Assembly: GCA_020847715.1 (NCBI GenBank) | Contig: JADLBM010000007.1 | Span: 8,624-72,623, forward strand | Direction: 5' to 3' | DNA: 64,000 bases | DNA from: Candidatus Yanofskybacteria bacterium | GTDB taxonomy: Bacteria; Patescibacteriota; Minisyncoccia; 2-02-FULL-40-12; GWA2-44-9 | Shown here: piece after piece, positions 612 to 51,131 of the stretch | Layout of the letters: each line of letters begins with the position of its first letter | Numbering within the stretch: position 1 is the first letter of the stretch | The notes under the pieces: model-generated | Database searches by the model: none | What the model saw: the letters and a program-made list of their open reading frames with translations, nothing else | Told to the model about the DNA's origin: nothing | Position numbers and translations under genes: made by a program

Positions 612-620
612 TATACTGGG

Positions 621-839
621 ATGCCAAAGAAATACCTCATGGTGCAAGAAGTGGCGCACCTCCTTGGAGTCACTCCCCTTACGATTCGCAACTGGGATGC
701 GAAGGGAAAGCTCACCGCGTACCGCCATCCGCTCAACAACTACCGGATGTATAAAGTCGAAGATGTCGAAGCTATCATCCGACGAATGGAAGTCTCCCGC
801 GAAAAACCGAAGGCGCGGAAAATAGATATTGTAGGCTAA
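621..839 (+). CDS. Small helix-turn-helix DNA-binding protein, excisionase/MerR-type HTH
   Basis: 72-aa protein; MVQEVAHLLGVTPLTIRNWDAKGKL matches the excisionase-family/MerR HTH pattern. Confidence 0.65.
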   Translation: MPKKYLMVQEVAHLLGVTPLTIRNWDAKGKLTAYRHPLNNYRMYKVEDVEAIIRRMEVSREKPKARKIDIVG

Positions 840-877
840 GAAAGAAAAAGCCCCTCACGTGCGTGAGGGGCGATACG

Positions 878-3745
878 TCAGACCGGCTTGGGGAGGAACT
901 TCCGCCAGTCGAACTGACGCGGATTTGCGAACCAGTCCCTGATTTGGTCGTACATCAGGGAGCGCACGAGGACGGGGCCGTCCTCGGGTCCACCGGTCGG
1001 GAGGCCGATGAACAGCACGCCCGTGTTGTTGGGCGGGAACCCACGCTCACCGTACAGGTCGGTGTGCGTGTTCGCGGGACCCATAGCGTAGATGGCGTAC
1101 GGGGTGATGATCTTGTTCTTGAAGTGCTTGTCACCGTACGTCTTCAGGGTGACGCGCCCCGTCGCATGGCCGAAGGAGTCGCCACGGGCGCGGTCGTTGT
1201 TGACCACGGCCGACAGCGGGTCCGACCAGCTCGAGAGACGCGCAGGAGACGCGAGGAACGTCAGTCCCCACTCATACCCACCAGGAGCGCAGACCGTGCC
1301 AAGCGCGAAGTACTCGTTGCTGTACAGCGGCGCGAGCACATAGCGATCGAGGAACGCCTGCTGGTCCTTCCAGTGGGAAAGCCCCGCCAGCCGAGCGCGG
1401 AGGTACTGTGCGTAGAAGACACCTTCTGTGAGCGTGTCTTCGACGGACGCCGCGAAGTGATTCCCGCAACCGATGTTGAGGATGCCGACGTCGCGCCCAT
1501 CGTACGGAATACCGCGAATCTCACTGAGACCGCGGATTGCCAGCTTGGAGCGCTGAGAGCGACGGAGCACCGAATCGAAGAAGTCCAGGTTGGGGTCGAT
1601 CAGCCGAGTGAACACTTCCAGCATTTGCGGCTGAACCCAGTCCAGACCTCGAATGAGGAACTGGCCGAGGTCGAACCGCGCGGCATCCACGGTGAGCTGC
1701 ATGACCGTGGCCGAGTCGCCCCGCTTCGCAGCGTTCCCGATTTCGTCGTGGCGCTTGCGCCACCACTTCTCGATCTGATCATACGACATCTCGCCCGGAT
1801 CGGGCTGCTTGTGTGTGTCGTAGTGATTCCCCTGCGTCGGGTCATCGTTGACCGTCAGGAGGTGAATCGGGAAATCGTTGCTGTCGAGGATGCCACCGCG
1901 GCGCATCATCATGACGACCGCCTCGGATACGCCGAGGTTGCGATGCGTGGTCGCGTCGAAGATGTGCTCACGAGAGCGGCTGCCCATGTGGATGTCCGTC
2001 ATCTCGACGGTCCAGATGTAGCGCGTCTCCGGATACGGGTAGTACCCGGGAATGACCGCCTTCGGCCGCTTTGCCTTCGGGAGGTGCTTCAGGTGGACGC
2101 TGTTGTCCAACTTCGCGATGGGGAACGAGTCTCCCGTCACGATGCCGTTGACGCGCTGGAGGACCAGTACGCCAGGGCAGAACTGCTCGGACTTCAGCAC
2201 CTTCGAGATGGGGTGCACCGCCTTCGTGGAGCCACGAAGCTCCCCGCGGAGGAACGCCTCGTCCACACAGATGGGAGCCACGTGCACTTCGGATGAGTCG
2301 CGCTGACCCATTGTGTAGTGATCGCGACCGACCATCCGGTGGTTCAGAGCGTACGGGTGGCAGATGACCGCAGTGTGCGGCACAGCTCCGCGGTACGCCT
2401 TCGCACCGAACTCGTCTACGAAGGACGAAAGGAGACCATCGGTGACCTTGATGTTACCCGGGATGTGAACCTCGATGGGATCGTAGTCGCCCACCTTGAC
2501 GTGGCTAGTCCCCTGCCCAATGACGCGGCAGTTGGGAATGACCTCTTCCAGCTTCTTCGCGAGCAGGGCGCGGAGTCGCAGACGGCGCCGCTCCAAATCC
2601 TGGTCACTGACGTTCGTGATGATGGTCATCGCAAGCTCTTCAGTGAGCTCGCGCAGGTCCTGTTCGTACTTCGCGATGTCGATGGCGGCCTGACGCCGAT
2701 CCGAAGCGCTCCTGCTGTTGAGCATGCTGTACGCCCGTGCCAACTCACGCTTCGTGAAGCTGATGTGGGCTTCGAGCTGCTTCCGCTCCAAGAGCGTGAT
2801 GTAGCGCACCTCGTAGTACGCCGCCGTGTTGATGAGCTCCTCCTCGACGTAGCCGAGGGGATAGAGCACGGGACCGCTGAACTCGGGAGACCCGTCAGGA
2901 CGGTGTGTGATCTTGTGCCACGCGTCCAGGAACCCCAGGAACTTCGCCTCGAGAGGCATGAAGATGACCTCGTCGAGCGGCTTACTCCTGAGGATGCGTC
3001 GCGCCTTCGCCTGATACGAGGCGGGCAGATGCTCGACCTTCACATGAAGGCCTGAGACCTGGGCGCGGTATGTCTTGATGGGACCAGCGGCCTTCTTGAG
3101 GTCCATGGACAGGCCGTTGGTAATCACGACGCACGCATCGCCTCGCTTCTCGGCATCCGACAACGCCCGCCGGACCGGATTGTCCTTGATCAGGCGGTTG
3201 TGCTTGATACCGATGAGGCCACCGTTGACGAACGCGACCGTCCAGTCCGCCCCTGCGGGCACGACGAACGGGTTCGCGAAGCTGGATTCAGGAAACTCGA
3301 AGAGCTCCGCGTCCGCGGCGAGATCCTCCGTGGACAGGCGCCCCATGCCGGCGATGAACTTCGCCGATGCGTGGGCATTCGTGACACCCGTCAGGAACTT
3401 CGCCTTCTTGGCGAACATGTCCTCGGGGATGTACGCGTAGTACTTCTTCCGGAACTCGTCCAACGGAATGTTGGTCCGAATCGCACGCTTGAGCGCATCG
3501 AGCGCCTGCGTGGTCCAGATGAGCTTCGGCAGTCGACCGATGAGACCCTGCTTCGAAAGGCGCAGGCCTCCGGTCAACTTCTCGACGAATTCGGTGCGGA
3601 GTGTCTGTAGGATCGACTCCAAGCCGCCCTTGCGCAGCAGCGCACCCGACTGGATGAGCTCGCGGCAACGGGACTCGAGGCCTTGGATCCTCCAGACGTC
3701 CTTCGCCGCCGAACCGTTTCGGTGTGACGTCTCGGCCTTTGCCAT
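878..3745 (-). CDS. Large hypothetical protein (955 aa) with calcineurin-like metallophosphoesterase motifs in the C-terminal half; N-terminal about 550 aa unassigned
   Basis: Single uninterrupted 955-aa ORF with diverse composition and GC-rich third positions; motifs TDIHMG...GNHYDTH and a second GCGNHF resemble DxH...GNH(D/E) of metallophosphatases; the overlapping + strand ORFs (863-2296, 2318-3055) are R/D/V/L-rich, typical antisense artefacts. Confidence 0.6.
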   Translation of the reverse strand: MAKAETSHRNGSAAKDVWRIQGLESRCRELIQSGALLRKGGLESILQTLRTEFVEKLTGGLRLSKQGLIGRLPKLIWTTQALDALKRAIRTNIPLDEFRKKYYAYIPEDMFAKKAKFLTGVTNAHASAKFIAGMGRLSTEDLAADAELFEFPESSFANPFVVPAGADWTVAFVNGGLIGIKHNRLIKDNPVRRALSDAEKRGDACVVITNGLSMDLKKAAGPIKTYRAQVSGLHVKVEHLPASYQAKARRILRSKPLDEVIFMPLEAKFLGFLDAWHKITHRPDGSPEFSGPVLYPLGYVEEELINTAAYYEVRYITLLERKQLEAHISFTKRELARAYSMLNSRSASDRRQAAIDIAKYEQDLRELTEELAMTIITNVSDQDLERRRLRLRALLAKKLEEVIPNCRVIGQGTSHVKVGDYDPIEVHIPGNIKVTDGLLSSFVDEFGAKAYRGAVPHTAVICHPYALNHRMVGRDHYTMGQRDSSEVHVAPICVDEAFLRGELRGSTKAVHPISKVLKSEQFCPGVLVLQRVNGIVTGDSFPIAKLDNSVHLKHLPKAKRPKAVIPGYYPYPETRYIWTVEMTDIHMGSRSREHIFDATTHRNLGVSEAVVMMMRRGGILDSNDFPIHLLTVNDDPTQGNHYDTHKQPDPGEMSYDQIEKWWRKRHDEIGNAAKRGDSATVMQLTVDAARFDLGQFLIRGLDWVQPQMLEVFTRLIDPNLDFFDSVLRRSQRSKLAIRGLSEIRGIPYDGRDVGILNIGCGNHFAASVEDTLTEGVFYAQYLRARLAGLSHWKDQQAFLDRYVLAPLYSNEYFALGTVCAPGGYEWGLTFLASPARLSSWSDPLSAVVNNDRARGDSFGHATGRVTLKTYGDKHFKNKIITPYAIYAMGPANTHTDLYGERGFPPNNTGVLFIGLPTGGPEDGPVLVRSLMYDQIRDWFANPRQFDWRKFLPKPV

Positions 3746-3860
3746 TGTGCTTCTCCTTCATTGTCAGAGAACAACGCCGAAACTATACCAATCTATTTCA
3801 CCCCGACAACTTGACGAAACATAAGAAAATGCGGGTGGCTTTCGCCACCCGCACCAAGCG

Positions 3861-5093
3861 CTATGCGGTCACCGCGACGGCCTTCACCGTCTTCGGCTTT
3901 TCGTCCATCACCGCACCCGACAACTGCTCCGTCTTCATCGCCAAGTTCTGGCCAATGAGACTGCCTCCGGCGTTGCCGACGATGTAGGGCGCTGCCTTCT
4001 CCGCCGTAATCGTCCCCTGTGCAAGGGAGTGCATGCACAGGTACCACACACCATTGGAGAACACCGAGGTCCACGCGAGGTACTGCGGACTGTTCCGCTG
4101 GCGGGCGCGGCTCACCATCGTGAAGCTCACTGCCTGCCACGCGGAAACCGCCAACAGAAGGAGTGCCGGCTTCCAACCAGCAAACCCGAAGACCAGCACA
4201 TGGACCACCAGAATGAACGCAAGCGCCTGCAGCTGCGCCACGGGCCATTGCACCTTGGCGCCGGCGGTCACATGTGCATCGAAGGTCGCCTTCAGCTTCT
4301 TCCCGAGATCCTGCCCGACATTCGCACCGATGAGCGAGCCGATGATGCTCCCCGTCGTAACGGGCAGGAACAACGCCCAATCGAATCGGTTGCTAATCAT
4401 GATGAACAGCTTCAGGAAGGCAACGCCGATTTGGAAGACGACTGCACCCGCGTGGAACCAGTAGTGATCGGTGCTTCGCGCGACGCGGAGAAGTGAGAAT
4501 GCGAAGCTTTCCACGACGGTCAGAAGAAGGAGTGCGGCAAGCAGGCCCCTGCCGAACGACGGCGCGCTCAGCATCATCTGCGCCCCAAGCGCGGCGCTTA
4601 GGAGCGCGACCGTCGGCCACAGTTTCATGAGCTGCGGCCGACCCTTCGCGCCCTCCGCAGACAGCCCCAGCGCGGACTCGATTCTGATCGAGAGCGTGTT
4701 CGCATGCAGCGTACCGAGAATGGTCGCAAACACGTATGGCGCCAAGAGCGCCGGCGGCAACTCGTTTCGCACCAGCAACCGTAGCGACCAGAAGAATGTG
4801 AAGCTCGCTGCCAGCGCCGCGAGCACGTGGTAGGCATTGCTATTGCGGTTCGCGGAACGCGACTGAAGGCCATACGCCGTGTTCTGGAGGTACGCCAGCC
4901 CCATCACAGTGATGGCTGTTAGCGGGAGCCACAGTGCGGGATGGAGCTGCACGAACTGAACTAGATGACCGTAGGTAGTCCGAAGCTCCTCGAAATGAGC
5001 CTTCGAGAACACGCCGAGCTGCGCCGCGACAACGCCGCCAATCAGCCACAGCGGATTGATGTTCCACAACCTCGCACCGAGACGAGTGAGCAT
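3861..5093 (-). CDS. Polytopic integral membrane protein (10-12 predicted TM segments), unknown function
   Basis: Long hydrophobic ORF; start placed at Met66 of the listed ORF (MLTRLGARLW...) because the upstream extension translates a noncoding tandem DNA repeat. Confidence 0.55.
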   Translation of the reverse strand: MLTRLGARLWNINPLWLIGGVVAAQLGVFSKAHFEELRTTYGHLVQFVQLHPALWLPLTAITVMGLAYLQNTAYGLQSRSANRNSNAYHVLAALAASFTFFWSLRLLVRNELPPALLAPYVFATILGTLHANTLSIRIESALGLSAEGAKGRPQLMKLWPTVALLSAALGAQMMLSAPSFGRGLLAALLLLTVVESFAFSLLRVARSTDHYWFHAGAVVFQIGVAFLKLFIMISNRFDWALFLPVTTGSIIGSLIGANVGQDLGKKLKATFDAHVTAGAKVQWPVAQLQALAFILVVHVLVFGFAGWKPALLLLAVSAWQAVSFTMVSRARQRNSPQYLAWTSVFSNGVWYLCMHSLAQGTITAEKAAPYIVGNAGGSLIGQNLAMKTEQLSGAVMDEKPKTVKAVAVTA

Positions 5094-5159
5094 GGAAGCT
5101 TCCTTTCTTGTAAATGACGCCGGAGGCACCCTAGCACATATGAGGCTCCATTCAAGCAC

Positions 5160-5263
5160 ATAGGTAATCCTACGGCCTGCTGGCCTCAGGATTGTTGCGC
5201 GACGGGGTCGATCGCAATAGGTAATCCTACGGCCTGCTGGCCTCAGGATTGTTGCGCGACGGG
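5160..5263. repeat. Two tandem copies of a 47-bp element (ATAGGTAATCCTACGGCCTGCTGGCCTCAGGATTGTTGCGCGACGGG) separated by 10 bp; each copy holds an inverted repeat AATCCT-N16-AGGATT
   Basis: Direct identical repeat read at 5160-5206 and 5217-5263, lying between an upstream terminator and the membrane-protein gene start. Confidence 0.85.
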
Positions 5264-5273
5264 TACGCGCAAC

Positions 5274-5302
5274 AAAAAGACCGCCCACGGATGTGGACGG
5301 TC
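5274..5302 (-). terminator. Rho-independent terminator for the minus-strand gene 5318-5611
   Basis: Minus strand reads GACCGTCCACATCCGTGGGCGGTC followed by TTTTT; separately, a TTGTTGCGC/GCGCAACAA stem-loop (not a T-tract terminator) lies downstream on the minus strand. Confidence 0.6.
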
Positions 5303-5317
5303 ATCGATTCAACCACC

Positions 5318-5611
5318 TCAGAGGACGCGCCAGCCCACGAGAAGTTTCGCCAGCTCGTGTACTTCCTGAGGCGAGAGACGCTGGCACTCGCAGAGACGAA
5401 CGGTCAGCTTGTCGTCGGGACACAACGAGACGATGTCACCGAACACCTCGTTTTTGAGCAAGAAAGGACTCGGCCTGCCAATCCATCGTCGTATGAAGTT
5501 GGCGAGCTCGTTCAGGTCTGCAACCCTCTTGATATCGTCCGCGACCAGACAGAGGTACTCGACCTGCTGGGGATGCGCCGCAATCGTCTTACACACCGAG
5601 ATCTTGGTCAT
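5318..5611 (-). CDS. Hypothetical small protein (97 aa, MTKISVCKTIAAHPQQVEYLCLVADD...)
   Basis: ORF with a GGAGGG Shine-Dalgarno 6 nt upstream of the internal ATG at 5611; the longer 124-aa version lacks an RBS. Confidence 0.5.
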   Translation of the reverse strand: MTKISVCKTIAAHPQQVEYLCLVADDIKRVADLNELANFIRRWIGRPSPFLLKNEVFGDIVSLCPDDKLTVRLCECQRLSPQEVHELAKLLVGWRVL

Positions 5612-5678
5612 TTCACCCTCCGCACAACGAACCGGCACCACGGTAGCAAGATTCGGGGCCCTGCGCAATCTTCCAGAA

Positions 5679-5709
5679 ATTGACTCATCCAAAGAACTAT
5701 GGTATATAA
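5679..5709 (+). promoter_or_regulatory. Sigma70-type promoter for the LemA-TPM operon (TTGACT-17-TATATAAT)
   Basis: TTGACT at 5679-5684, 17-nt spacer, TATATAAT at 5702-5709; AAGGAG RBS precedes the ATG at 5760. Confidence 0.6.
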
Positions 5710-5759
5710 TCCCCGCAGATCCTTTCCAAATCCAACCCCGTTTCTAAGGAGTGTCCGCA

Positions 5760-6356
5760 ATGAAGAAGTTTGCCGTCGGAATCGTGGCAGTGCTGGTGCT
5801 TGCCGTCCTGTACGGCATCAGCGTCAACAACACCATCATCGCGCACCAGCAGGATGCCGAGCAGAAGCTCGCCAATGTCGCCTCCGCGCTCCAGCGCCGA
5901 GCCGACCTGCTCCCGAACCTGGCGAGCATCGTGGCCCGCTACGCGACCCACGAACAGAGCACCTTCATCGAGACGGCCCGCGCTCGCGCCTCGGCCGCCG
6001 CATCCATCAAGCTGGACGCCGAGACGCTCAGCGACCCCGAGAAGCTGAGGAAGTTTCAGGCGGCACAGGGTGAGGTGTCTTCCTTCCTGTCGCGCCTGAT
6101 GGCGGTTCAGGAGCAGTACCCCAATCTGAAGGCCGATCGGCTGTTCATTGACCTGCAGGCGCAGGTGGAGGGCACCGAGAACCGCATCAAGGTCGAGCGG
6201 GACAACTACAACACGGCGGTCCGCAACTACAACAACATCGTCCTGATGTTCCCGTCGAGTCTGGTGGCGTCGTTCCGCAACTTCCAGAAGCTGCCCTACT
6301 TCCAGGCGGAAGAGGCTGCAACGAAGACGCCGGATCTGGGAGACCTCCTGAAGTGA
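5760..6356 (+). CDS. lemA: LemA family protein
   Basis: N-terminal TM then the conserved LemA region (QQDAEQKLANVASALQRRADLLPNL...YNNIVLMFPSSLVASFRNF). Confidence 0.85.
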   Translation: MKKFAVGIVAVLVLAVLYGISVNNTIIAHQQDAEQKLANVASALQRRADLLPNLASIVARYATHEQSTFIETARARASAAASIKLDAETLSDPEKLRKFQAAQGEVSSFLSRLMAVQEQYPNLKADRLFIDLQAQVEGTENRIKVERDNYNTAVRNYNNIVLMFPSSLVASFRNFQKLPYFQAEEAATKTPDLGDLLK

Positions 6357-7054
6357 GGCGCCTCCTCGCAGTCGTCGCATTCGCCGCGGCACTCACTGCC
6401 GCGGCGGAGGACCAGCTCCCCCGGCCTGCCGGGTACGTGACGGACACCGCCGGCCTCCTCTCGACCGCCGCAGTGACCCGCATCGACGAGCAACTCCGAG
6501 CGTTCGACGCACAGACATCAACGCAGGTGGTCGTCGTCACCGTCCTGAGCCTCAACGGTGAAGCGCCGGAGGCGTACGCAAATCGCCTGTTCCGCCAGTG
6601 GGGTGTCGGCCAGAAAGGCACCAACAACGGAGTGCTCCTGCTCATCACCAAAACCGACCGGAAGATCCGCATCGAGGTCGGGCGCGGGCTGGAAGGAGCA
6701 CTGCCTGACGCGACCGCCAAGGAAATCATCGACACAATCATTGCCCCACACCTCGCCAAGCGAGAGTTCGATGTCGGTGTGGGCGCTGGCGTGGACGCCA
6801 TCCTCGCTGCCGTGAAGGGTGAGTACACCCGCCCACCGTCGACCGGATGGCCAACATGGCTCATCGTGCTCATCATCGTCGTCGTGGTCCTCCTCATCCT
6901 CATCGTGCTCGCCGCAGGGAACAGCAGCGGAGGAGGCGGATACTACGCTTCCGGCGGAAGCGACTGGGGCGGGAGCAGTGGCGGCGGAGGCGGAGGTGGA
7001 TGGTCCGGCGGCGGAGGAGACTCCGGCGGCGGAGGAGCGAGCGGCGGATACTAA
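6353..7054 (+). CDS. TPM-domain (YgcG-like) protein with C-terminal TM and Gly-rich tail
   Basis: Signal peptide, then GYVTDTAGLLS...VVVVTV...GVLLLI...RIEVGRGLEG typical of TPM/DUF477; start overlaps the lemA stop; LemA-TPM pairing is a common operon. Confidence 0.8.
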   Translation: MRRLLAVVAFAAALTAAAEDQLPRPAGYVTDTAGLLSTAAVTRIDEQLRAFDAQTSTQVVVVTVLSLNGEAPEAYANRLFRQWGVGQKGTNNGVLLLITKTDRKIRIEVGRGLEGALPDATAKEIIDTIIAPHLAKREFDVGVGAGVDAILAAVKGEYTRPPSTGWPTWLIVLIIVVVVLLILIVLAAGNSSGGGGYYASGGSDWGGSSGGGGGGGWSGGGGDSGGGGASGGY

Positions 7055-7152
7055 TCTATCGCTCGACCCCATGGCGGGTTCTTCGTGAACCCGCCTTTTT
7101 TGTGCTCACAAATTGCCGATACCGAGATTTTATGCTAGAATGTAGTACTTTT

Positions 7153-7223
7153 GGGGGATTCGTTCAGTGGCAGGACGGCGGTCTCCAAAACCGCTAACGT
7201 GGGTTCGATTCCTACATCCCCCG
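7153..7223 (+). tRNA. tRNA-Trp (anticodon CCA)
   Basis: Cloverleaf read by hand: acceptor GGGGGAT/ATCCCCC, anticodon stem GCGGT/ACCGC with loop CTCCAAA, T-loop TTCGATT; preceded by promoter TTGCCG-17-TAGAAT (7111-7139). Confidence 0.9.
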
Positions 7224-7227
7224 CATC

Positions 7228-7262
7228 AAGAAAACAAGGCGCCATGTGGCGCCTTGTTTTCT
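7228..7262 (+). terminator. Rho-independent terminator after tRNA-Trp
   Basis: Perfect inverted repeat AAAACAAGGCGCC...GGCGCCTTGTTTT followed by CTTG. Confidence 0.7.
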
Positions 7263-7431
7263 TGCTTGTGAAGGAGTATGTAGGAATCGAACCGCCGGAG
7301 CGATGTTGCGTCAGTAGGCGCAACCGCGAGGCGGGGTCCCGAGTGCACGGCGAAGCGACGGCAAGCCGTGACACGAGGGCGATTCCCTTACAATCTTCGG
7401 CGAACCGTCGAGAGCGAAATTCCTGCACCCC

Positions 7432-8148
7432 ATGAAGGCAGCGCAAAAGAAATCAAAAAATGATGGCCATGTACTTGCGCTTAATAAGAACATCAAGGGA
7501 GTTCGAGCGCTCCTCGATATTGCCTCACGACCGAAAATTAGAGCAGTCGAAAAAAGAATTCTCCTGAGAAGCGCAATCGTCTTATTTGTGGCTTGCTGGG
7601 AAGCATTTGTTGAGGATTTAGCACGGACGGCTTTCAAATTCATGCAAAAAGAAGCTGGAGACTGTTCAAAAGTACCAGATTCAATCAAGAGAAGACTTTC
7701 GGAGCAATTACTCAAAATAAAAGACCCGATTTACCCCTGGTCCCTCGCGGAGGACGGTTGGAAAAATGTTCTTCAAAAGCACGGCGATACGGCAATCCAG
7801 GAATGGGTTGACGCGGTAAATACACCGAGTAGCCAGGCAGTCTCCCAACTTTTTGAAAAACTTATTGGACTCAGGAATATGCCAAACTTTTGGAGTTGGC
7901 GTGGCATGTCTGCGAATCAGGCGAAAGCAAGGCTCGCTGAATACATAAGGATTCGTGGAGAAATTGCGCACCGCGTCTCGGCAAATACCAGAGTAGCGAA
8001 AACCGTAATTTCTAGAACTTTTGTAATTGACCATGTTAACTTCATATTCCGCTTGGCCACACGCTCATGTAATGGTGTTCGGAAGCACCTAGTAAAATCG
8101 TTTGGTAAGGAGCCGTGGCCAAGCTATTCATACAGGGCAACCAAATGA
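7432..8148 (+). CDS. HEPN-motif protein (R-x4-H: IRIRGEIAHR), possible abortive-infection/toxin-like RNase; compositionally foreign
   Basis: 238-aa ORF that is clearly AT-rich (about 40-45% GC by eye versus over 60% in flanks); C-terminal RGEIAHR fits the HEPN Rx4-6H motif. Confidence 0.5.
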   Translation: MKAAQKKSKNDGHVLALNKNIKGVRALLDIASRPKIRAVEKRILLRSAIVLFVACWEAFVEDLARTAFKFMQKEAGDCSKVPDSIKRRLSEQLLKIKDPIYPWSLAEDGWKNVLQKHGDTAIQEWVDAVNTPSSQAVSQLFEKLIGLRNMPNFWSWRGMSANQAKARLAEYIRIRGEIAHRVSANTRVAKTVISRTFVIDHVNFIFRLATRSCNGVRKHLVKSFGKEPWPSYSYRATK

Positions 8149-8255
8149 TTTCATGCCCCACATGCCCCAGTCTGGTATCCGGTCCGCCACCCGGAAACCC
8201 TTATACTGCCCTGTAAAGGCGGGCGCTTAACCTCCCTCCCCCACAAAAACAAAGA

Positions 8256-8279
8256 CGGGGCCACCATGGTGGACCCGCC
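8256..8279 (-). terminator. Terminator hairpin (GGGGCCACCATGGTGGACCC) followed on the minus strand by a T-rich tract
   Basis: Near-perfect 20-nt palindrome; minus strand continues CTTTGTTTTTGTG. Confidence 0.5.
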
Positions 8280-8310
8280 GGCATCATCCATTGAGGAGTG
8301 ATGCCTCCGC

Positions 8311-8490
8311 ATACGATTACTTCTTCTTTTCGTTCTCGCTTCGGGCAATGAGGCCCCGCGTCTCGGCCTCGACACGCTGGAGGCGATCCTCCTCGCTTTC
8401 AAAGGTGAACATCGCGGAAATCGGGTTTCTTCCCGTTTCCCCGAAGTCACGCGCCCTCTCGTAACTGGTTACCTGCTCTTGAGCCGTCCT
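8311..8490 (-). CDS. Possible small protein (59 aa, MARTAQEQVTSYERARDFGETGRNPISAMFTFESEEDRLQRVEAETRGLIARSENEKKK)
   Basis: ORF below the 60-aa cut-off of the track; GGGGAAG Shine-Dalgarno 5 nt upstream of the ATG; terminator hairpin just downstream. The listed overlapping 99-aa ORF 8151-8450 is in another frame, is low-complexity and runs through the terminator. Confidence 0.35.
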
Positions 8491-8638
8491 CGCCATAACT
8501 TCCCCTACACGAAGTGCGCCACTTCTTCTCGTCGATGCTCCTGAACTGCTCTCTCTGCTGTGAATAGACCTACTGTACTCACTATTTTAAAATCTGTCAA
8601 TAATCCATGAGAAGGGGCTCTGTGGTATAGTTTTCGCC

Positions 8639-9208
8639 ATGAAGATTGGCCGTAAAATCTACGTCACCACCGCCGCCCAGTGGCGCGCGTGGCTCACTAA
8701 GAACCACGCGACCGCGCGTGAGGTGTGGCTCGTGTACTACAAGGTCGGAAGCGGGAAACCGCGCATCTCCTACAACGATGCCGTCGAGCAGGCGCTCTGC
8801 TTCGGCTGGATCGACAGCACCGCGAAATCCATCGACGCCCTCCGCTTCGCCCAGCGCTTCTCGCCACGCCAGGACCCCACGAACTGGTCGCAACACAACA
8901 TCGAGCGCATGCACCGCATGATTGCGTCCAAGCAGATGACCCCAGCGGGGTTGGCCGCATTCAAGCACCACACGCCACTCTCAAAAACGAAACGGCTCGT
9001 CCTCGCTCCCGATGTGAAAGCTGCGCTCACCCGAGACCCTGCGGTCTGGCGCGCATTCATGGCATTCCCCGCGTCCTACCGGCGCATCCGTATCGCCGCC
9101 ATCGAACACTATCGGGCACGCGGTGCTGCCGCGTTTACCAAGCGCCTCGCTCACTTCGTCAAAAGAACAAAGGCCGGAAAGCGCATCGGTTTCGGCCACG
9201 GAGAATAA
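8639..9208 (+). CDS. YdeI/OmpD-associated family protein (bacteriocin-protection, PF13376-like)
   Basis: WRAWLTKNHATAREVWLVYYK...ISYNDAVEQALCFGWIDS...FSPRQDPTNWSQHN matches the YdeI family pattern. Confidence 0.7.
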   Translation: MKIGRKIYVTTAAQWRAWLTKNHATAREVWLVYYKVGSGKPRISYNDAVEQALCFGWIDSTAKSIDALRFAQRFSPRQDPTNWSQHNIERMHRMIASKQMTPAGLAAFKHHTPLSKTKRLVLAPDVKAALTRDPAVWRAFMAFPASYRRIRIAAIEHYRARGAAAFTKRLAHFVKRTKAGKRIGFGHGE

Positions 9209-9209
9209 G

Positions 9210-9238
9210 AAACGACCCTGTGAGGGGCCGTTTCTGTA
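9210..9238. terminator. Bidirectional terminator between the YdeI-family gene and rpmG
   Basis: GAAACGACCCTGTGAGGGGCCGTTTC hairpin; T-rich on the minus-strand side. Confidence 0.55.
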
Positions 9239-9240
9239 TG

Positions 9241-9405
9241 CTAGCCAGTGAGCTTCGTTTCCTTGTGCGGCGTGCGCTTCTTGCACTTCGAGCAGAACTT
9301 CATATATTCGAGCTTCCGCTCCACCTTCTTTTTGTTCTTGGTGGTGTAGTAGTTCGCGCTCTTGCACTTCTGGCACTTCATGCGAAGGAGATTGTCTTGA
9401 GACAT
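9241..9405 (-). CDS. rpmG: 50S ribosomal protein L33
   Basis: Not in the ORF track (54 aa). Translation MSQDNLLRMKCQKCKSANYYTTKNKKKVERKLEYMKFCSKCKKRTPHKETKLTG has the L33 C-x2-C...C-x2-C zinc ribbon and conserved YTTTKNK / HKETK. Confidence 0.85.
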   Translation of the reverse strand: MSQDNLLRMKCQKCKSANYYTTKNKKKVERKLEYMKFCSKCKKRTPHKETKLTG

Positions 9406-9523
9406 AGAGGTAGATTAGCCCGCGTACTGTAGCACAAACCGTTCAATTTGTGAAGTCCTTCGTGCCTATGCACTCAGGACACTTTGCCAGCCACCCCCCT
9501 CAACCACGAGGGAGTGGCAACGT

Positions 9524-25325: not shown

Positions 25326-25354
25326 TTGACAGTATATTATTGGTATGCTATGAT
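25326..25354 (+). promoter_or_regulatory. Near-consensus sigma70 promoter TTGACA-17-TATGAT
   Basis: TTGACA 25326-25331, 17-nt spacer, TATGAT 25349-25354. Confidence 0.6.
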
Positions 25355-25360
25355 GTCTGT

Positions 25361-25829
25361 GCGTCGCTGGAGCTGAGTCTCCCGTCACGCGCGGCTCTTC
25401 GGGGCCACACAGGAAACGACCAGTGTTCGACCGGCAGTAGAAGCGCGCTAAGGAGGCGCAACGCCCTTGCACGAAACGAGGGACCCGGCGACCTGTCCGG
25501 TGTGCCACAGGGAACCCACGGTATCCTAGCAAAGTCGGCGATGACCCCACGCGTCGGCGTCGGGCGAGCCACTCGAAGGATGAAACGTGGAGGGTGGGAC
25601 CTTGAAAACCCAACGAATCATGTCACCACTCCTGTGGTGACGAGTTGCCTAACGGTAAGCTAGTAGGAGCCTCACTCCCAATGGAGTGTATTAAGATAAG
25701 GCTTGCGAACGCGCGTACCCAGAGGCAACCACGCCCCTCGAGCCCAACATCGACCGAAGGCTAGCGAGCTCCTTGAGAGCTGCGCCGCCGAACCGGAATC
25801 CCTTGGCCCACTCGAGGGGCCTTTTATTT
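25361..25829 (+). ncRNA. Candidate stable noncoding RNA, about 470 nt, possibly RNase P RNA (tentative)
   Basis: No credible ORF in a roughly 600-bp gap between convergent-orientation genes; strong promoter upstream and hairpin GGCCCACTCGAGGGGCC + TTTTATTTT at 25804-25829; many local hairpins (UUCG-capped GGCUCUUCGGGGCC, GUCACCAC-UCCU-GUGGUGAC). Loose resemblance to type-A RNase P elements: hairpin then AGGAAACGACC (cf AGGAAAGUCC); GGAUGAAACGUGGAGGGUG (cf GGGUGAAANGGUGCGG); CCUUGAG...GCCGAACCGGAAUC (cf CUUGAG...ACAGAACCCGGCUUAUC). Confidence 0.35.
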
Positions 25830-25871
25830 TCGGTATCCGTCCGAAAATATCCTGAGCCAGTAGGCGAAGGA

Positions 25872-26510
25872 TTACACCGCTGAAGCAAGCTCGGAGAGCG
25901 CCCGCGCAGGATCGGCCGCACGCACAACATAGCTCCCGCTCACGAGAATGGATGCGCCAGCCATCGCGCATGACGATGCGGTCTGCGGCGTGACGCCACC
26001 GTCGGCAATGATGGTGATATCGGGATGCGCCGCTTGAAACTGCCGCATGCGCTCAAGCGCCTCCGGCACGAACGCCCGCCCCTGCTGGCCGGGGTGTACC
26101 GTCATGAACTGCACAAGGTCCGCGCTCGCCGCAACGGCCTCGAGCCGCTCGAGTGGGGTTTCCGGATTTATAGATACTCCGAGCTTCTTTCCACACTCAT
26201 GTGCGTGCCCTGCAAGCTCTGGGAAGCTTTTTGTCGCTTCGATATGTACAAGGAATCGGTCTGCACGCGTCGAAGTGCACCAGTGTGCGCACGCGAGCTC
26301 TGGCCGGGACACCATAAGGTGCACATCAAACAGGATAGGCGTCTCCAGTCGCGCCAGCTCCTCGTATCCTTTGATGGTGCGGGTCGGCACGAAGATGCCG
26401 TCGCAGACATCGAGATGCGCGCGCGTCACCCCTGCCTGCTCGAAGATGCGCACCAGCCGAACGAGCTCGGCTTCGCTCTCAGTGAGAATGGCGGGGATGA
26501 TGTCGACCAC
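25872..26510 (-). CDS. rpe: Ribulose-phosphate 3-epimerase
   Basis: AHLDVCDGIFVPTRTIK...FDVHLMV...VHPGQQGRAFVPEAL...IADGGV. Confidence 0.85.
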   Translation of the reverse strand: MVDIIPAILTESEAELVRLVRIFEQAGVTRAHLDVCDGIFVPTRTIKGYEELARLETPILFDVHLMVSRPELACAHWCTSTRADRFLVHIEATKSFPELAGHAHECGKKLGVSINPETPLERLEAVAASADLVQFMTVHPGQQGRAFVPEALERMRQFQAAHPDITIIADGGVTPQTASSCAMAGASILVSGSYVVRAADPARALSELASAV

Positions 26511-36103: not shown

Positions 36104-36916
36104 ATGCCAACCCGAACACAGATCGTCTGCACTATCGGTCCCGCCTCGAAGGAACCCGCCGTACTCGATGCGCTCATCGCGCACGGGATGGATGTGGCAC
36201 GGCTGAACTTCAGCCACGGCACCCACGACGAGCACCGCGTACTCATCGAGAACATCCGCGCCGCTGCGCAGCGTGCCGGACGCGTCATCCCCATCATCCA
36301 AGACCTCTCCGGCCCTCGCGTGCAGACCGGTAGCGAGCATCACATGGACCCGAACGCGGTACAGGTTATCACAGAGAAAGACCTCACTGACCTCGACTTC
36401 GGTCTCTCGCAGTGGGTTGAGTATGTATGCCTTTCGTTCGTCGGCTCCGCGAAAGACGTAAACGACCTACGTGCCGAAATTGCCAAACGAAACGGTGGCG
36501 TTCCTGCCGAAAAAGGGTTGCCGAAGGTGATGGCCAAGGTCGAGCGAAAAGAAGCGCTCGAGAACATCGAAGAGATTATCACGGCAAGCGATGCCATTAT
36601 GCTCGGACGCGGCGACCTCGGACAGAACATTCCGCTCGAGCAGGTGCCGTTCGCTGAGGCGCTCGTCGTGCACCACTGTAAAGAGCATCGCACCCCCGTC
36701 ATTGTCGCGACTGAAATGCTCAAGAGCATGGTAGAGAATCCCGAGCCGACCCGCGCCGAGATTACCGACATTGCCTACGCCATTATTCTCGGCGCCGACG
36801 CGGTGATGCTCTCCGAAGAAACAGCCCGCGGGAAATACCCTGTCGAGGCCGTTACCTACATGGAACGCGTCTGCACAGAGGCCGAGAAGTACGAGCGCGA
36901 CGTGAACGCGCTCTAA
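36104..36916 (+). CDS. pyk: Pyruvate kinase-like protein, A (TIM-barrel) domain only (270 aa; no B lid or C-terminal domain)
   Basis: PK motifs TQIVCTIGPAS, QDLSGPRVQTG (cf LDTKGPEIRTG), KVERKEALENIEEI...IMLGRGDLG, MLSEETARGKYPVEAV; TATAAT immediately upstream of the ATG. Confidence 0.7.
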   Translation: MPTRTQIVCTIGPASKEPAVLDALIAHGMDVARLNFSHGTHDEHRVLIENIRAAAQRAGRVIPIIQDLSGPRVQTGSEHHMDPNAVQVITEKDLTDLDFGLSQWVEYVCLSFVGSAKDVNDLRAEIAKRNGGVPAEKGLPKVMAKVERKEALENIEEIITASDAIMLGRGDLGQNIPLEQVPFAEALVVHHCKEHRTPVIVATEMLKSMVENPEPTRAEITDIAYAIILGADAVMLSEETARGKYPVEAVTYMERVCTEAEKYERDVNAL

Positions 36917-37455: not shown

Positions 37456-38010
37456 TTACCTCCGGCGATGTAACCGCGGCAGGCGCTCATCGATGAGCCG
37501 GCGGCGAATCTCGGCAAGCGCCTGCGCTGCCATGTGGAGATGCATCCGATGATACGCAATCAGCGCCGCCTCCACCGCAGCCGGACCCGCATAGCGGGCG
37601 GCCTCATGGTCCACAGCGGACTCGCACGAGATGTACTCCTCCAAGCTTCCGAGGCTCTGACAGGTTACTCCGAGCCCCATGTGGGCAACCTCGTGTGCCA
37701 CAAGGCCACTGAGCGCGAGCTCGCTGAACGTCGAGGCCTCGAACTCTTCGCTGTAGATAGCCACCACGCCGACACCCTTGATGGGATCGGTCGCGAACAC
37801 GGGCGAGAAGCGTCCTTCGGGCTGCCGACAGCGTACGAGCCGCTCGGTGACGCCAGCCGTTGCGAAGTGCTTCGCGAAGAGTCGCTCGACACGATTGGCC
37901 GGATCGGACTCCTGAACAACACACGGAGGGCTCCAGAAGTACTGCGCGCCGGGTTTCATCGCTTCTGCCGGTGTGATCTGCAGGAGTAGGACGGCAATGA
38001 GTCCGAACAT
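37456..38010 (-). CDS. Putative secreted zinc metallopeptidase (HExxH: VAHEVAHM), paralog of the downstream gene
   Basis: Signal peptide; HEVAH + GLG; same architecture as 36947-37453. Confidence 0.5.
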   Translation of the reverse strand: MFGLIAVLLLQITPAEAMKPGAQYFWSPPCVVQESDPANRVERLFAKHFATAGVTERLVRCRQPEGRFSPVFATDPIKGVGVVAIYSEEFEASTFSELALSGLVAHEVAHMGLGVTCQSLGSLEEYISCESAVDHEAARYAGPAAVEAALIAYHRMHLHMAAQALAEIRRRLIDERLPRLHRRR

Positions 38011-49982: not shown

Positions 49983-51131
49983 CTAATTCCCCGTCGCCCA
50001 CCGGAACAGCTCATGCGCAAGAGCTCCGAAGATCGCCAGACAGAATGCAGCACTCACGAACCACCCGATAACCGGAATGATGCCGATAAGGCTCAGGAGA
50101 ACAACCCCTCCTAATGCCGAGGCCCAGGTAAGGTGCAGCGCGGTTCGCTTCTGAACGACCATCATGAGCCATGCCCCGAAGAACATTCCGGCAAGAGCCT
50201 TCGTGAGAATCATCATCGCGGCATACGCAAGCAGTATGAGGGCACCCGGGAGAATGCCCACGAAGCTGAACAGAAGGAGAATCGCAACGATTGGGGTCAC
50301 GATGCCGTAGATAAGCCCCCGTCCCAGCGAACGCAGGAATGCGTCCTTTGCCTGCGCGAACAGCTCAAGCGACTGCCGTCGCCAACGCCACATAAGGAAC
50401 GCCGCCAGACCAAGCGTTGCGATGAGTCGCATCGCCGACAGAACGCCGATGATTGCCCATCCAATTCGTTTCGGAGCACGATCGTCGAATCGAACACCCT
50501 GCATGCGTTGGGTGTACTCGATTGATCCGGTAACCCGAGCACCATCAGCCATCTGCACCTCACGCGCTGAACGGTATGTGAGGTTTCCGGCAACCACCGC
50601 GGCTGAACCGAGCATAACGCTCTCATCGGCACGGGCGTAGACATTTCCGTTCACCGTTCCGTTGATGACAAGAACACCTCCAATCATCCGCACTGAACCA
50701 TCAACGATACCGTCAATCGTCACCTGGCCGCCGGCGACAACAAGATCGCCGCCGATACGGGATCCGGGAAGCAGATGAATCGTCCCGCCGGCGACGACAA
50801 GATCGCCGCTCACACGGTCATTGATCACAACCGAGCCGCCCGCTGCACGAACATCGCCCGAAACCGGACCAAGAAGTTGTATGTTCCCGCCAATCGCCGC
50901 AATATCGCCAAGTACCGCGCCCGTCACCGATACAGTTCCACCGACTGCTAACGCATCACCATCAACCGTACCACCGACCGTCGTCGTCCCTGCCGCGACG
51001 TACAGGCTCCCCAGTACTCGTTGCTGAACAGGAAGTGAATACTGCTGGCCCGAAGCCAGCGTTGCCGCCATTGCGCTCAGCGGAACCGCCGCGAACACGC
51101 CGACCGCGAGAATACTCAAAATGCGCTTCAT
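49983..51131 (-). CDS. Signal-peptide protein with bactofilin-like repeats and C-terminal multi-TM region
   Basis: Repeating GD..V.GG.V motifs over about 200 aa, followed by four or five TM helices. Confidence 0.55.
   Translation of the reverse strand: MKRILSILAVGVFAAVPLSAMAATLASGQQYSLPVQQRVLGSLYVAAGTTTVGGTVDGDALAVGGTVSVTGAVLGDIAAIGGNIQLLGPVSGDVRAAGGSVVINDRVSGDLVVAGGTIHLLPGSRIGGDLVVAGGQVTIDGIVDGSVRMIGGVLVINGTVNGNVYARADESVMLGSAAVVAGNLTYRSAREVQMADGARVTGSIEYTQRMQGVRFDDRAPKRIGWAIIGVLSAMRLIATLGLAAFLMWRWRRQSLELFAQAKDAFLRSLGRGLIYGIVTPIVAILLLFSFVGILPGALILLAYAAMMILTKALAGMFFGAWLMMVVQKRTALHLTWASALGGVVLLSLIGIIPVIGWFVSAAFCLAIFGALAHELFRWATGN

Follow-up and report, generated by a model that had tools for sequence, protein, structure and literature searches.

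A small family of terminator-adjacent palindromic hairpins, tandemly duplicated upstream of a membrane-protein gene of Candidatus Yanofskybacteria

The tandem repeat at positions 5160–5263 of the window, a 64-kb stretch of a Candidatus Yanofskybacteria genome analysed here over its full length, is real and conserved, and we assign it to a small and new family of palindromic hairpins next to terminators, the kind of element itself being ordinary. From the genomes compared, the family appears to be specific to this lineage. The reading that we favour, with a probability of roughly 45%, is that of a low-copy, REP-like intergenic hairpin family next to 3' ends, tandemly duplicated at this locus and possibly acting as a barrier to read-through. 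The two 47-bp copies are best read as a tandem duplication, with a period of 57 bp, of a two-hairpin unit of about 57 nt.

The copies (5160–5206 and 5217–5263, without assigned strand) were 100% identical, with a start-to-start distance of 57. Each held the sequence AATCCT-AC-GGCC-TGCT-GGCC-TC-AGGATT (5166–5193 and 5223–5250), a 28-nt imperfect palindrome whose outer and inner stems, of 6 and 4 bp, are separated by a 2 x 2 internal loop and capped by a tetraloop. A third stem, the 10-bp perfect inverted repeat TTGTTGCGCG (5249–5258)/CGCGCAACAA (5266–5275), reused the 3' end of the second copy. The original prediction had described two identical 47-bp copies 57 bp apart, an AATCCT-N16-AGGATT inverted repeat in each of them, and a third stem sharing the repeat end, and it was accurate on all of these points. 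Searched with up to three mismatches, the 28-mer occurred exactly twice in the 64 kb, as did the pattern AATCCT-N10-22-AGGATT; two occurrences of either were reached in 0 of 100 dinucleotide shuffles. Within the 57-bp period, 47 bp were identical and 10 bp had diverged. The 10-bp stretch that separates the copies is a copy of neither flank, so a recent and perfect tandem duplication of 57 bp does not account for the arrangement.

The genes on either side of the repeat are both encoded on the minus strand. The upstream one is a small ORF (5318–5692, minus) listed with 124 aa; its likely start is ATG 5611, which gives 97 aa, the length also called in the Logan contig L006. It ends in an intrinsic terminator (5279–5302, minus; 10 pairs, 7 of them GC; tail TTTTTGTTGC; T-run 5273–5278), so the upstream-gene terminator assumed at the outset is indeed present, running on the minus strand from 5302 to 5279 and into TTTTTG. 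A terminator of equivalent structure and different sequence was found in L003, L007, L010, L011, L015, L017, L019, and L020. The downstream neighbour of the repeat module is the gene of a polytopic membrane protein (3861–5093, minus; 410 aa; Shine-Dalgarno sequence at 5099–5106), followed by an ORF of 955 aa. The membrane protein had 42 homologues in Paceibacteria-type MAGs, two of which carry a precomputed TauE/SafE (PF01925) match, and the closest protein match, annotated as hypothetical, came from a MAG of Candidatus Yanofskybacteria. No Pfam or NCBIfam family was found for the small ORF, the membrane protein, or the 955-aa ORF. The cluster of small ORF, terminator, membrane protein, and ~950-aa protein is kept in relatives at about 60–72% identity, together with a reverse-oriented MerR/HTH_17 (BldC-like) gene wherever the contig extends far enough.

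A promoter of the membrane-protein gene was predicted at 5128–5155 (minus), with the -35 hexamer TTGAAT (5150–5155), a 16-nt spacer, and an extended -10 TGC-TAGGGT (TGCTAGGGT; 5128–5136, minus) downstream of both repeat copies. Its hexamers were invariant between the window and the Candidatus Yanofskybacteria sister genome SJ643 (L003) and the spacer carried five substitutions, a combination that is a classical signature of the promoter predicted here. A -10-like TAnnGT, usually with the TGn extension, was present ~32–39 nt before the start in most orthologues of the membrane-protein gene, and TGnTAnnGT was also found 20–40 nt upstream of other starts in this genome; a -10-like motif of this kind precedes the 955-aa ORF, the small ORF (TGCTACCGT at 5640–5648), and rpmG in the window. 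Both copies would accordingly be situated in the gap between the terminator and the predicted promoter, upstream of the latter. With that promoter downstream of both copies, the 5' UTR of the membrane-protein gene probably does not include the repeats, and the leader position given to them originally is not supported.

Each unit forms two adjacent hairpins on the minus strand, designated alpha and beta. Hairpin alpha-1 (5249–5275, minus) is composed of UUGUUGCGCG, the loop UACCCGU, and CGCGCAACAA, with arms of 10 nt that are 100% complementary; its 5' arm continues the U-tract of the upstream terminator. The unit that contains it had a minimum free energy of -31.2 kcal/mol (z -6.0). Hairpin beta-1, the promoter-distal one (5223–5250, minus), reads AAUCCU-G.U-A·G-GGCC-AGCA-GGCC...AGGAUU and scored 55.7 bits with R2, a covariance model of beta only whose seed was the six beta sequences treated below. 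In the second unit, alpha-2 (5195–5217, minus; UUGCG-(AU bulge)-CGAC/CCC/GUCG-CGCAA) was derived from the minimum-free-energy structure, its 5' arm being the unique, non-repeated 10-bp spacer, and the promoter-proximal beta-2 (5166–5193, minus) was derived from that structure and R2. Folding z-scores were lower on the minus than on the plus strand, both for the 227-nt gap (-5.1 vs. -3.2) and for the single units (-6.0 and -4.4 vs. -1.7 and -3.2). The U-tail of beta on the sense strand is weak (UUACCUAUU), so beta is no canonical terminator; the sense-strand tails read UUACCUAU, UACACCGC, and UUCACAAA. A scan for intrinsic terminators, defined by a GC-rich hairpin with an immediate U-tract, called only 5302–5279 and neither alpha nor beta.

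The orthologous locus of SJ643, where the membrane protein is 89% and the small ORF 51% identical to those of the window, also carries two units. Over the 119 nt that extend from the T-run through the second unit, the two genomes differ at 7 positions. Four of the seven differences give the inner stem of beta-2 the form GCGC/GCGC instead of GGCC/GGCC, which amounts to two compensatory pairs; the two beta copies of SJ643 thus differ in the inner stem (GGCC vs. GCGC) with pairing kept. Another is a C-to-U change in alpha-2, where the pair is kept as a G-U pair that is standard on the minus strand only. The remaining differences fall one in a loop and one in a bulge, and no paired position is broken. 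The divergence between the window and SJ643 is mosaic: at 4-fold degenerate sites it was highest in the small ORF (55%), followed by the membrane-protein gene (46%), the N-terminal part of the 955-aa ORF (22%), and LemA and TPM (15–17%). Even against the lowest background (15%), the probability of 7 or fewer differences in 119 nt is at most 0.0014, and in a sliding identity profile the module forms a peak of 92–97% between flanks of 83% and 55%. The low divergence relative to 4-fold sites and the identity peak indicate that the module is constrained.

In nine more distant orthologous loci (about 60–72% protein identity), the gap was 88–142 nt long and contained the terminator, a short promoter region, and the Shine-Dalgarno sequence. 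The covariance models detected no unit in any distant orthologous locus that keeps the cluster. In the related genomes compared, two units are kept in SJ643 and none in the distant orthologues. The MerR-like gene is kept in the repeat-less loci L007, L011, and L013, whose contigs reach that far. In L007 the same gap holds a tRNA-Trp gene, and in L018 the upstream gene is different and the gap longer. Two possible remnants, in L016 (UCCUGACGAGGAUUACCU) and L018 (UAGAGUUACCU), received no support from the models.

A third, diverged alpha-beta unit was found at 25827–25872 (plus). It scored 22.9 bits (E ~2e-5 over the 64-kb window) with R1, a covariance model of the four units with which the window was searched with filters off, and 40.7 bits with R2. 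The stem of its alpha hairpin (UUUUCGG/UAUCCGU/CCGAAAA) is entirely different from that of locus 1 and still paired, with a loop that is nearly UACCCGU; its beta (25849–25872) reads AUCCU-GA-GCC-AGUA-GGC-GA-AGGAU. The unit is located directly behind the terminator 25805–25830 (GGCCC-ACTCGAG-GGGCC-TTTTATTTT), and its beta overlaps the stop codon of rpe (25872–26510, minus) by 1 nt at 25872. As this next gene is convergent, the unit has no downstream promoter. The fourth beta (9455–9480, minus; GUCCU-GA-GUGC-AUAG-GCAC-GA-AGGAC), a seed member of R2 with 49.5 bits, lies between tRNA-Thr(ggt) with an 11-bp hairpin (9490–9518) that has no T-run and the promoter TTCACA-17-TACAGT of rpmG (L33). With R1 and filters off it reached 11.4 bits (E 0.14), and its SJ643 counterpart reached 15.9 bits. 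This SJ643 orthologue (5771–5796) carries a U-A to C-G change, and the tRNA-Thr locus of SJ643 has an extra, degenerate tandem copy.

Four beta hairpins at three loci were thus present in 64 kb. R2 gave its own members 40.7–56.8 bits and detected no additional copy, either in the window or at the other loci, the covariance searches having covered 72 kb of ~1-Mb genomes. Of the weak model matches, the one at 36885 proved to be an isolated hairpin, the one at 37860 coding sequence, and the one at 7110 of L011 an ordinary terminator. The test by which many copies would have pointed to a dispersed repeat rather than to a dedicated site told in part against a dedicated site: diverged betas occur at two unrelated loci, one of which has no downstream promoter. 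The 47-mer itself is not a many-copy sequence in the 64 kb. Beyond the window, the strict 28-mer pattern AATCCTNNGGCCNNNNGGCCNNAGGATT, which would miss diverged copies, matched among 185,579 species genomes only the SJ643 orthologous locus and three generic bidirectional terminators. The latter are genuine bidirectional terminators of the AAUCCU...AGGAUU shape in unrelated genomes of other phyla. A looser pattern gave one chance coding match each in JGI metagenomes and in IMG/VR, and blastn against phages and plasmids gave no match. A dispersed identical repeat was rejected on the outcome of these searches.

Across the loci, the inner stem and one outer pair of beta covary. In the six distinct betas, a small sample aligned in a hand-made register with N placeholders in one row, all 53 of 53 cells were paired (100%) and three pairs were changed on both sides (8 cells). 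The covariation score was reached by none of 500 shuffles, and slid controls were 31–43% paired. Compensatory substitutions across independent copies, the mark of a structured RNA or ssDNA motif, were therefore found, and the hairpins of the original prediction are real and evolutionarily maintained. The sequence UCCUGAG...CG(U/A)AGGA and an A-rich tetraloop are conserved across the beta loci. Unpaired positions are conserved as well, in the alpha loop UAYCCGU (two loci), in the beta internal loop, and, within locus 1, in the tail ACCUAU. The orientation of the hairpins was that of the co-directional flanking genes at the 5.2-kb and 9.5-kb loci, a rule for which two of the three loci are informative. 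The sign of the GC skew is uniform over the stretch that holds the unit loci, whereas the loci face both ways, so their orientation does not track replication.

The number of units varied between assemblies. The Logan contig L006, which encodes an identical membrane protein, had a single unit at the membrane-gene locus, exactly the form expected from recombination between the two 47-mers, and in L005 a repeat copy reads directly into the promoter-side flank. The junction sequences at the repeat locus are CCTAT/TGCGATCGAC and CCTAT/GTGCTTG. The one-unit form in L006 and L005 is either a real 57-bp deletion or a collapse in k-mer assembly. The single unit of L006 and the extra degenerate copy at the tRNA-Thr locus of SJ643 suggest that copy number is labile. 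The repeat locus is also an assembly warning, because it breaks or collapses in k-mer assemblies.

These observations are consistent with a REP-like family of 3'-end-associated hairpins, in which each beta combines a conserved 5–6-bp outer stem UCCU/AGGA, a conserved internal loop of G.U or G·A plus A·G, and a covarying inner stem of 3–4 bp. Alpha contributes a GC-clamped stem that takes its 5' arm from the terminator U-tract in unit 1 or from the spacer in unit 2. The members occupy intergenic gaps, immediately after the terminator or 3' hairpin that ends a transcription unit. In transcripts that pass the first terminator, the hairpins would fold and form a barrier, giving a second chance for pausing or termination and blocking 3' exonucleases; the promoter of the membrane-protein gene would thereby be insulated and the upstream RNA protected. 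Duplication and the one-unit variant would reflect the slippage or unequal-recombination dynamics usual for such repeats. That the hairpins act at the RNA level and serve insulation or stabilisation is what we infer from their fold and position. The occurrence of the loci in both orientations under a uniform GC skew favours single-stranded action of the sense strand, most simply as read-through RNA; the strand argument from G-U pairs concerns two positions only.

Several considerations weigh against this reading. A pure hairpin barrier fails to explain the conserved unpaired positions, and these nucleotides suggest a sequence-specific partner. The module stands behind a strong, canonical terminator, so that few transcripts may ever extend into it. 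The compensatory changes, in turn, could stem from templated quasi-palindrome mutation without functional selection.

REP and BIME elements of Enterobacteria and Pseudomonas are the closest known counterpart. They share with the present units the ~28-nt imperfect palindrome with an internal mismatch, the extragenic position just 3' of genes or terminators, the tandem clusters, and the strain-variable copy number. REP hairpins on the transcribed strand can stabilise upstream mRNA or attenuate read-through. The size and location typical of such palindromes (20–40 nt, extragenic) were found here too, save where one copy reaches by 1 nt into the rpe stop codon (25872). REP/BIME families comprise tens to hundreds of dispersed copies per genome; in the sequence searched here, copy density was very low, with three loci in 64 kb and, for the strict 28-mer, a match to SJ643 at the orthologous locus only. 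The present unit further differs in combining two hairpins, the first of which draws on the terminator U-tract for its stem; no RAYT gene is known for the family, and its host is a CPR bacterium with a streamlined genome of ~1 Mb. Instead of the GTAG of the REP 5' foot, the present hairpins have GUAG only in the beta copies of locus 1, inside the 3' arm (CCGUAGGAUU), and CGAAGGA at the other loci.

The same likeness would suit a selfish or mobile palindromic repeat without host function, either of REP/BIME type or a PATE-type element derived from IS200/IS605, which we consider unlikely. A RAYT/TnpA-like HUH enzyme would recognise the imperfect hairpin in ssDNA and insert it beside terminator hairpins. 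The palindromes are indeed imperfect, conserved at the base of the stem and variable at its tip; they are extragenic, located behind terminators, tandemly clustered, and lineage-restricted, and their copy number differs between strains and species. Since the distant orthologous gaps are only 88–142 nt long and lack the module, its presence looks like an insertion. However, orthologous copies have diverged less than 4-fold sites, and all changes at paired positions are compensated. The alpha stems of loci 1 and 2 form pairs in both cases although they are wholly different, suggesting selection on structure over a long time instead of recent copying. The copies are few (four betas per 64 kb, with the strict 28-mer pattern in only the SJ643 orthologous locus), the loci occur in both orientations relative to GC skew, and no transposase-like Pfam match was obtained among the 13 neighbouring proteins scanned.

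We are more doubtful still of a double-stranded target, in which the palindromes, with centres near -58 and -115 from the predicted transcription start, would be sites of a dimeric regulator or nucleoid protein that activates or represses the membrane-gene promoter. The dyad symmetry, the near-perfect conservation of outer half-sites and flanks with their unpaired positions, and the small MerR/BldC-like HTH gene within the conserved cluster would suit such sites, as would the end of beta-2 10 bp upstream of the predicted -35 and the direct contact of beta with the -35 TTCACA at the rpmG locus. Yet these two distances (10 and 0 bp) are unequal, and the 57-bp spacing corresponds to 5.4 helical turns. 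The inner stem changes in ways that keep base pairs, as in GGCC vs. GCGC in SJ643 and across loci, which is the behaviour of a hairpin and not of a contacted half-site or free spacer. At 25.8 kb a copy stands without any downstream promoter, in front of convergent rpe. A local operator would be conserved with its promoter and regulator and keep a fixed position relative to -35 and -10, but the sites are missing from nine loci, where the orthologous cluster promoters, the MerR-like gene included, do without them. With distant orthologues free of the repeat and one copy promoterless, the duplicated operator for a dimeric regulator suggested at first finds no support.

The conserved unpaired nucleotides could also be taken to mean that beta (UCCU-GA-stem-ARNA loop-stem-GA-AGGA, its internal loop being of the tandem G·A type and including a box-D-like CUGA) and the conserved 7-nt alpha loop UAYCCGU are the recognition site of a putative RNA-binding or RNA-processing protein of this CPR lineage. 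The site would mark the 3' ends of transcription units, among them a tRNA operon and a possible ncRNA of ~470 nt. The element would then be a new factor-dependent signal for 3'-end processing or termination and not a passive REP-like hairpin. We find this improbable and place it below the operator.

Lower again in probability is a terminator acting on the opposite strand, in which the antisense beta and the U-rich complement of an alpha arm (AGGAUU-GUUG; AGGAU-AUUUUCGG) would form a bidirectional pair with the sense terminator. At 25.8 kb the reverse complement of beta plus UAUUUU starts at the rpe stop and is the sole terminator-like structure for rpe; terminators with a TTGTTG tail occur in the window, and the matches of the 28-mer pattern in unrelated genomes have the same shape. 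Such a terminator is unneeded at the 5.2-kb and 9.5-kb loci, because both neighbours there are co-directional. On the opposite strand the internal loop loses its G-U pair and the fold is weaker, and the terminator scan called beta on neither strand. Fail-safe, tandem, and bidirectional terminators resemble the present arrangement in that GC-rich hairpins are stacked after a canonical terminator and before the next promoter or a convergent gene. In contrast to them, beta is not followed by a proper sense-strand U-tract, conservation extends to the internal loop and the loops, where terminators do not require it, and the same specific sequence recurs at several loci.

Very improbable, finally, is a cis-regulatory leader RNA of the membrane-protein gene (a tandem riboswitch like guanidine-II, an attenuator, or a type III antitoxin-like repeat): two near-identical hairpins with strong minus-strand folding do precede a transporter-like gene, and overlapping alternative stems (alpha/beta; GUAGG-AUUA-CCUAU) are possible, but the predicted promoter is downstream of both copies, all more distant orthologues lack the module, the same hairpin stands behind the 25.8-kb terminator and behind the tRNA operon, one unit suffices in a near-identical strain assembly, the loops AGCA/AACA are not ACGR, and no Rfam match above noise was obtained at E ≤10. 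Guanidine-II (mini-ykkC) riboswitches are alike in having two near-identical, short, GC-rich tandem hairpins before a membrane-protein gene. Their tetraloops are ACGR, whereas those found here are AGCA/AACA/AGUA/AUAG/AUAA, and they belong to the 5' UTR, whereas the present hairpins are upstream of the predicted promoter, far from the Shine-Dalgarno sequence, with copies also where no downstream gene follows. In view of the predicted promoter position, the absence in orthologues, and the copies elsewhere, a dedicated riboregulator or attenuator of the membrane-protein gene is thus not supported. The promoterless copy, the absence from orthologues, and the promoter position weaken the operator and leader explanations most.

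Other known elements were considered by comparison. The original statement that the repeat is no CRISPR repeat, tRNA, or known riboswitch was borne out. A CRISPR array has at least three repeats with unique spacers, whereas two copies with a 10-bp spacer were present and no further copies nearby. With cmscan at E ≤10, the region 5040–5340 gave only two noise matches (mir-957 and Hrs13), and no Rfam family at the gathering threshold. Stem-loop arrays of TIGR-Tas systems are frequent in CPR bacteria; they have most often 5–15 units with variable dual spacers of 8–12 nt, flanked by box C/D motifs, beside a gene for Nop-domain Tas (PMC12045711). The present repeat resembles them as a set of tandem palindromic-stem units in a Patescibacteria genome that CRISPR-type tools do not detect, but its two units are identical over 47 nt, with identical "spacers". 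The neighbouring proteins scanned gave no Nop, HNH, or RuvC match, and TIGR-Tas as well as IS110 bridge RNA were rejected on the absence of Nop and DEDD proteins among those scanned and on the identical "spacers" of the two units.

Several further identities were rejected. Likeness to the 3' end of 16S rRNA (helix 45 plus GGAUCACCU) was no better in local alignment than that of shuffles (p 0.05–0.3). A remnant of tRNA-Trp, suggested by the tRNA-Trp in the gap of L007, showed no similarity in blastn-short. For a dif, ori, or ter site, there is no GC-skew switch and the centre of the palindrome is GC-rich. An ORF that begins at GTG 5288 remains in frame across both copies (57 bp being 19 codons) and could suggest an N-terminal extension of the coding sequence; against this, the ORF of SJ643 starts at an ATG and a 1-nt indel breaks the frame. 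For a promoter inside the unit, with TAGGAT as -10, no acceptable -35 or TGn was found.

CPR/Patescibacteria genomes are small and densely packed, and to our knowledge almost nothing is known of their non-coding elements. The repeat reveals no new regulator of the membrane-protein gene. What was an isolated oddity is now a defined family with a covariance model applicable to metatranscriptomes and to complete CPR genomes. Should the family mark or strengthen the 3' ends of transcripts, it would offer a first handle on how adjacent transcription units are kept apart in these uncultured organisms; if it is a mere REP-like hitch-hiker, its copy-number variant would still be a marker for strain typing.

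Paceibacteria-type CPR genomes keep a gene cluster consisting of a small ORF (87–124 aa), a polytopic membrane protein (~400 aa), and a large protein (~950 aa). It occupies positions 620–5692 (−/+ strands) of the window and has counterparts at loci L005, L007, L010, L011, and L015–L020. None of the three proteins was assigned to a family in Pfam or NCBIfam, and two distant homologues of the membrane protein matched TauE/SafE. Putative metallophosphoesterase-like motifs (DIH..., GNH) were spotted by eye in the sequence of the 955-aa protein. Each cluster gene had its own terminator and its own TGnTAnnGT promoter. A MerR/BldC-like HTH gene (72 aa) was located on the opposite strand to the cluster and was present where contigs extended far enough. 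This MerR-like gene is adjoined in the window by a free-standing ORF with a GIY-YIG nuclease domain (306–600, +; Pfam E = 8e-16), and a GIY-YIG ORF was also detected near the cluster in L007. At two distant orthologous loci, L019 (~1160–1185) and L020 (~410–435), the loop of the small-ORF terminator hairpin contained a perfect DnaA-box-like TTATCCACA.

Comparison of window positions 3861–7230 with positions 1242–4915 of L003, the sister Yanofskybacteria genome SJ643, revealed strongly mosaic divergence. The small ORF (5318–5692, −) shared 51% protein identity, and 46% of the 4-fold sites differed in the membrane gene (3861–5093, −). The adjacent LemA, TPM, and tRNA-Trp region showed 15–17% 4-fold-site difference and 90–100% nucleotide identity. 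This pattern suggests that the segment spanning the small ORF and the membrane gene has recombined or evolved fast, and that the repeat module, two 47-bp copies at 5160–5206 and 5217–5263, is a conserved island flanked by these two diverged genes. An ORF starting from GTG 5288 (5094–5288, −) ran in-frame across both copies (57 bp = 19 codons) and on into the membrane gene, with the peptide RRATILRPAGRRITY occurring twice. It was rejected as not conserved because L003 carries a 1-nt indel and its ORF begins at ATG.

The position and orientation of tRNA-Trp relative to the cluster varied between loci. In L007 (2821–2892), it sits exactly in the terminator-promoter gap that carries the repeats in the window; in L010 (2447–2518) and L011 (2461–2532), its place is upstream of the small ORF. 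The window (7153–7224) and L003 have it 2 kb off, behind LemA and TPM. The interval between tRNA-Trp and the tRNA-Thr/Tyr/Thr cluster was 2.3 kb in the window (7225–9523) vs. 0.9 kb in L003 (4910–5845). The longer interval includes a HEPN RiboL-PSP gene (7432–8148) and an OmdA-domain gene (8639–9208), and the extra DNA looks like a strain-specific insertion beside tRNA genes. At the tRNA-Thr/rpmG locus of L003 (5725–5803, −), the beta hairpin, the AATCCT...AGGATT imperfect palindrome of the repeats, occurs twice in tandem; the second copy is degenerate, with the 3′ half intact and GUAGGAUGAG in place of the 5′ arm. This locus shows the same local duplication tendency as the membrane-gene locus.

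Positions 25326–25830 (+) may represent an unannotated ncRNA. A near-consensus sigma-70 promoter (TTGACA-17-TATGAT with TG; 11/12 matches) is followed by ~470 nt lacking a convincing ORF and closed by an intrinsic terminator (25805–25830, +). The candidate transcript had a fold z of −2.5, and an Rfam search (E ≤ 1) gave no match except one noise hit.

Another direct-repeat pair that also has 57-bp spacing (50728–50817; 33 nt, 88% identical) has no sequence relation to the 47-bp repeats. It falls within a 382-aa ORF (49983–51131, −) and is probably a 19-aa coding repeat.
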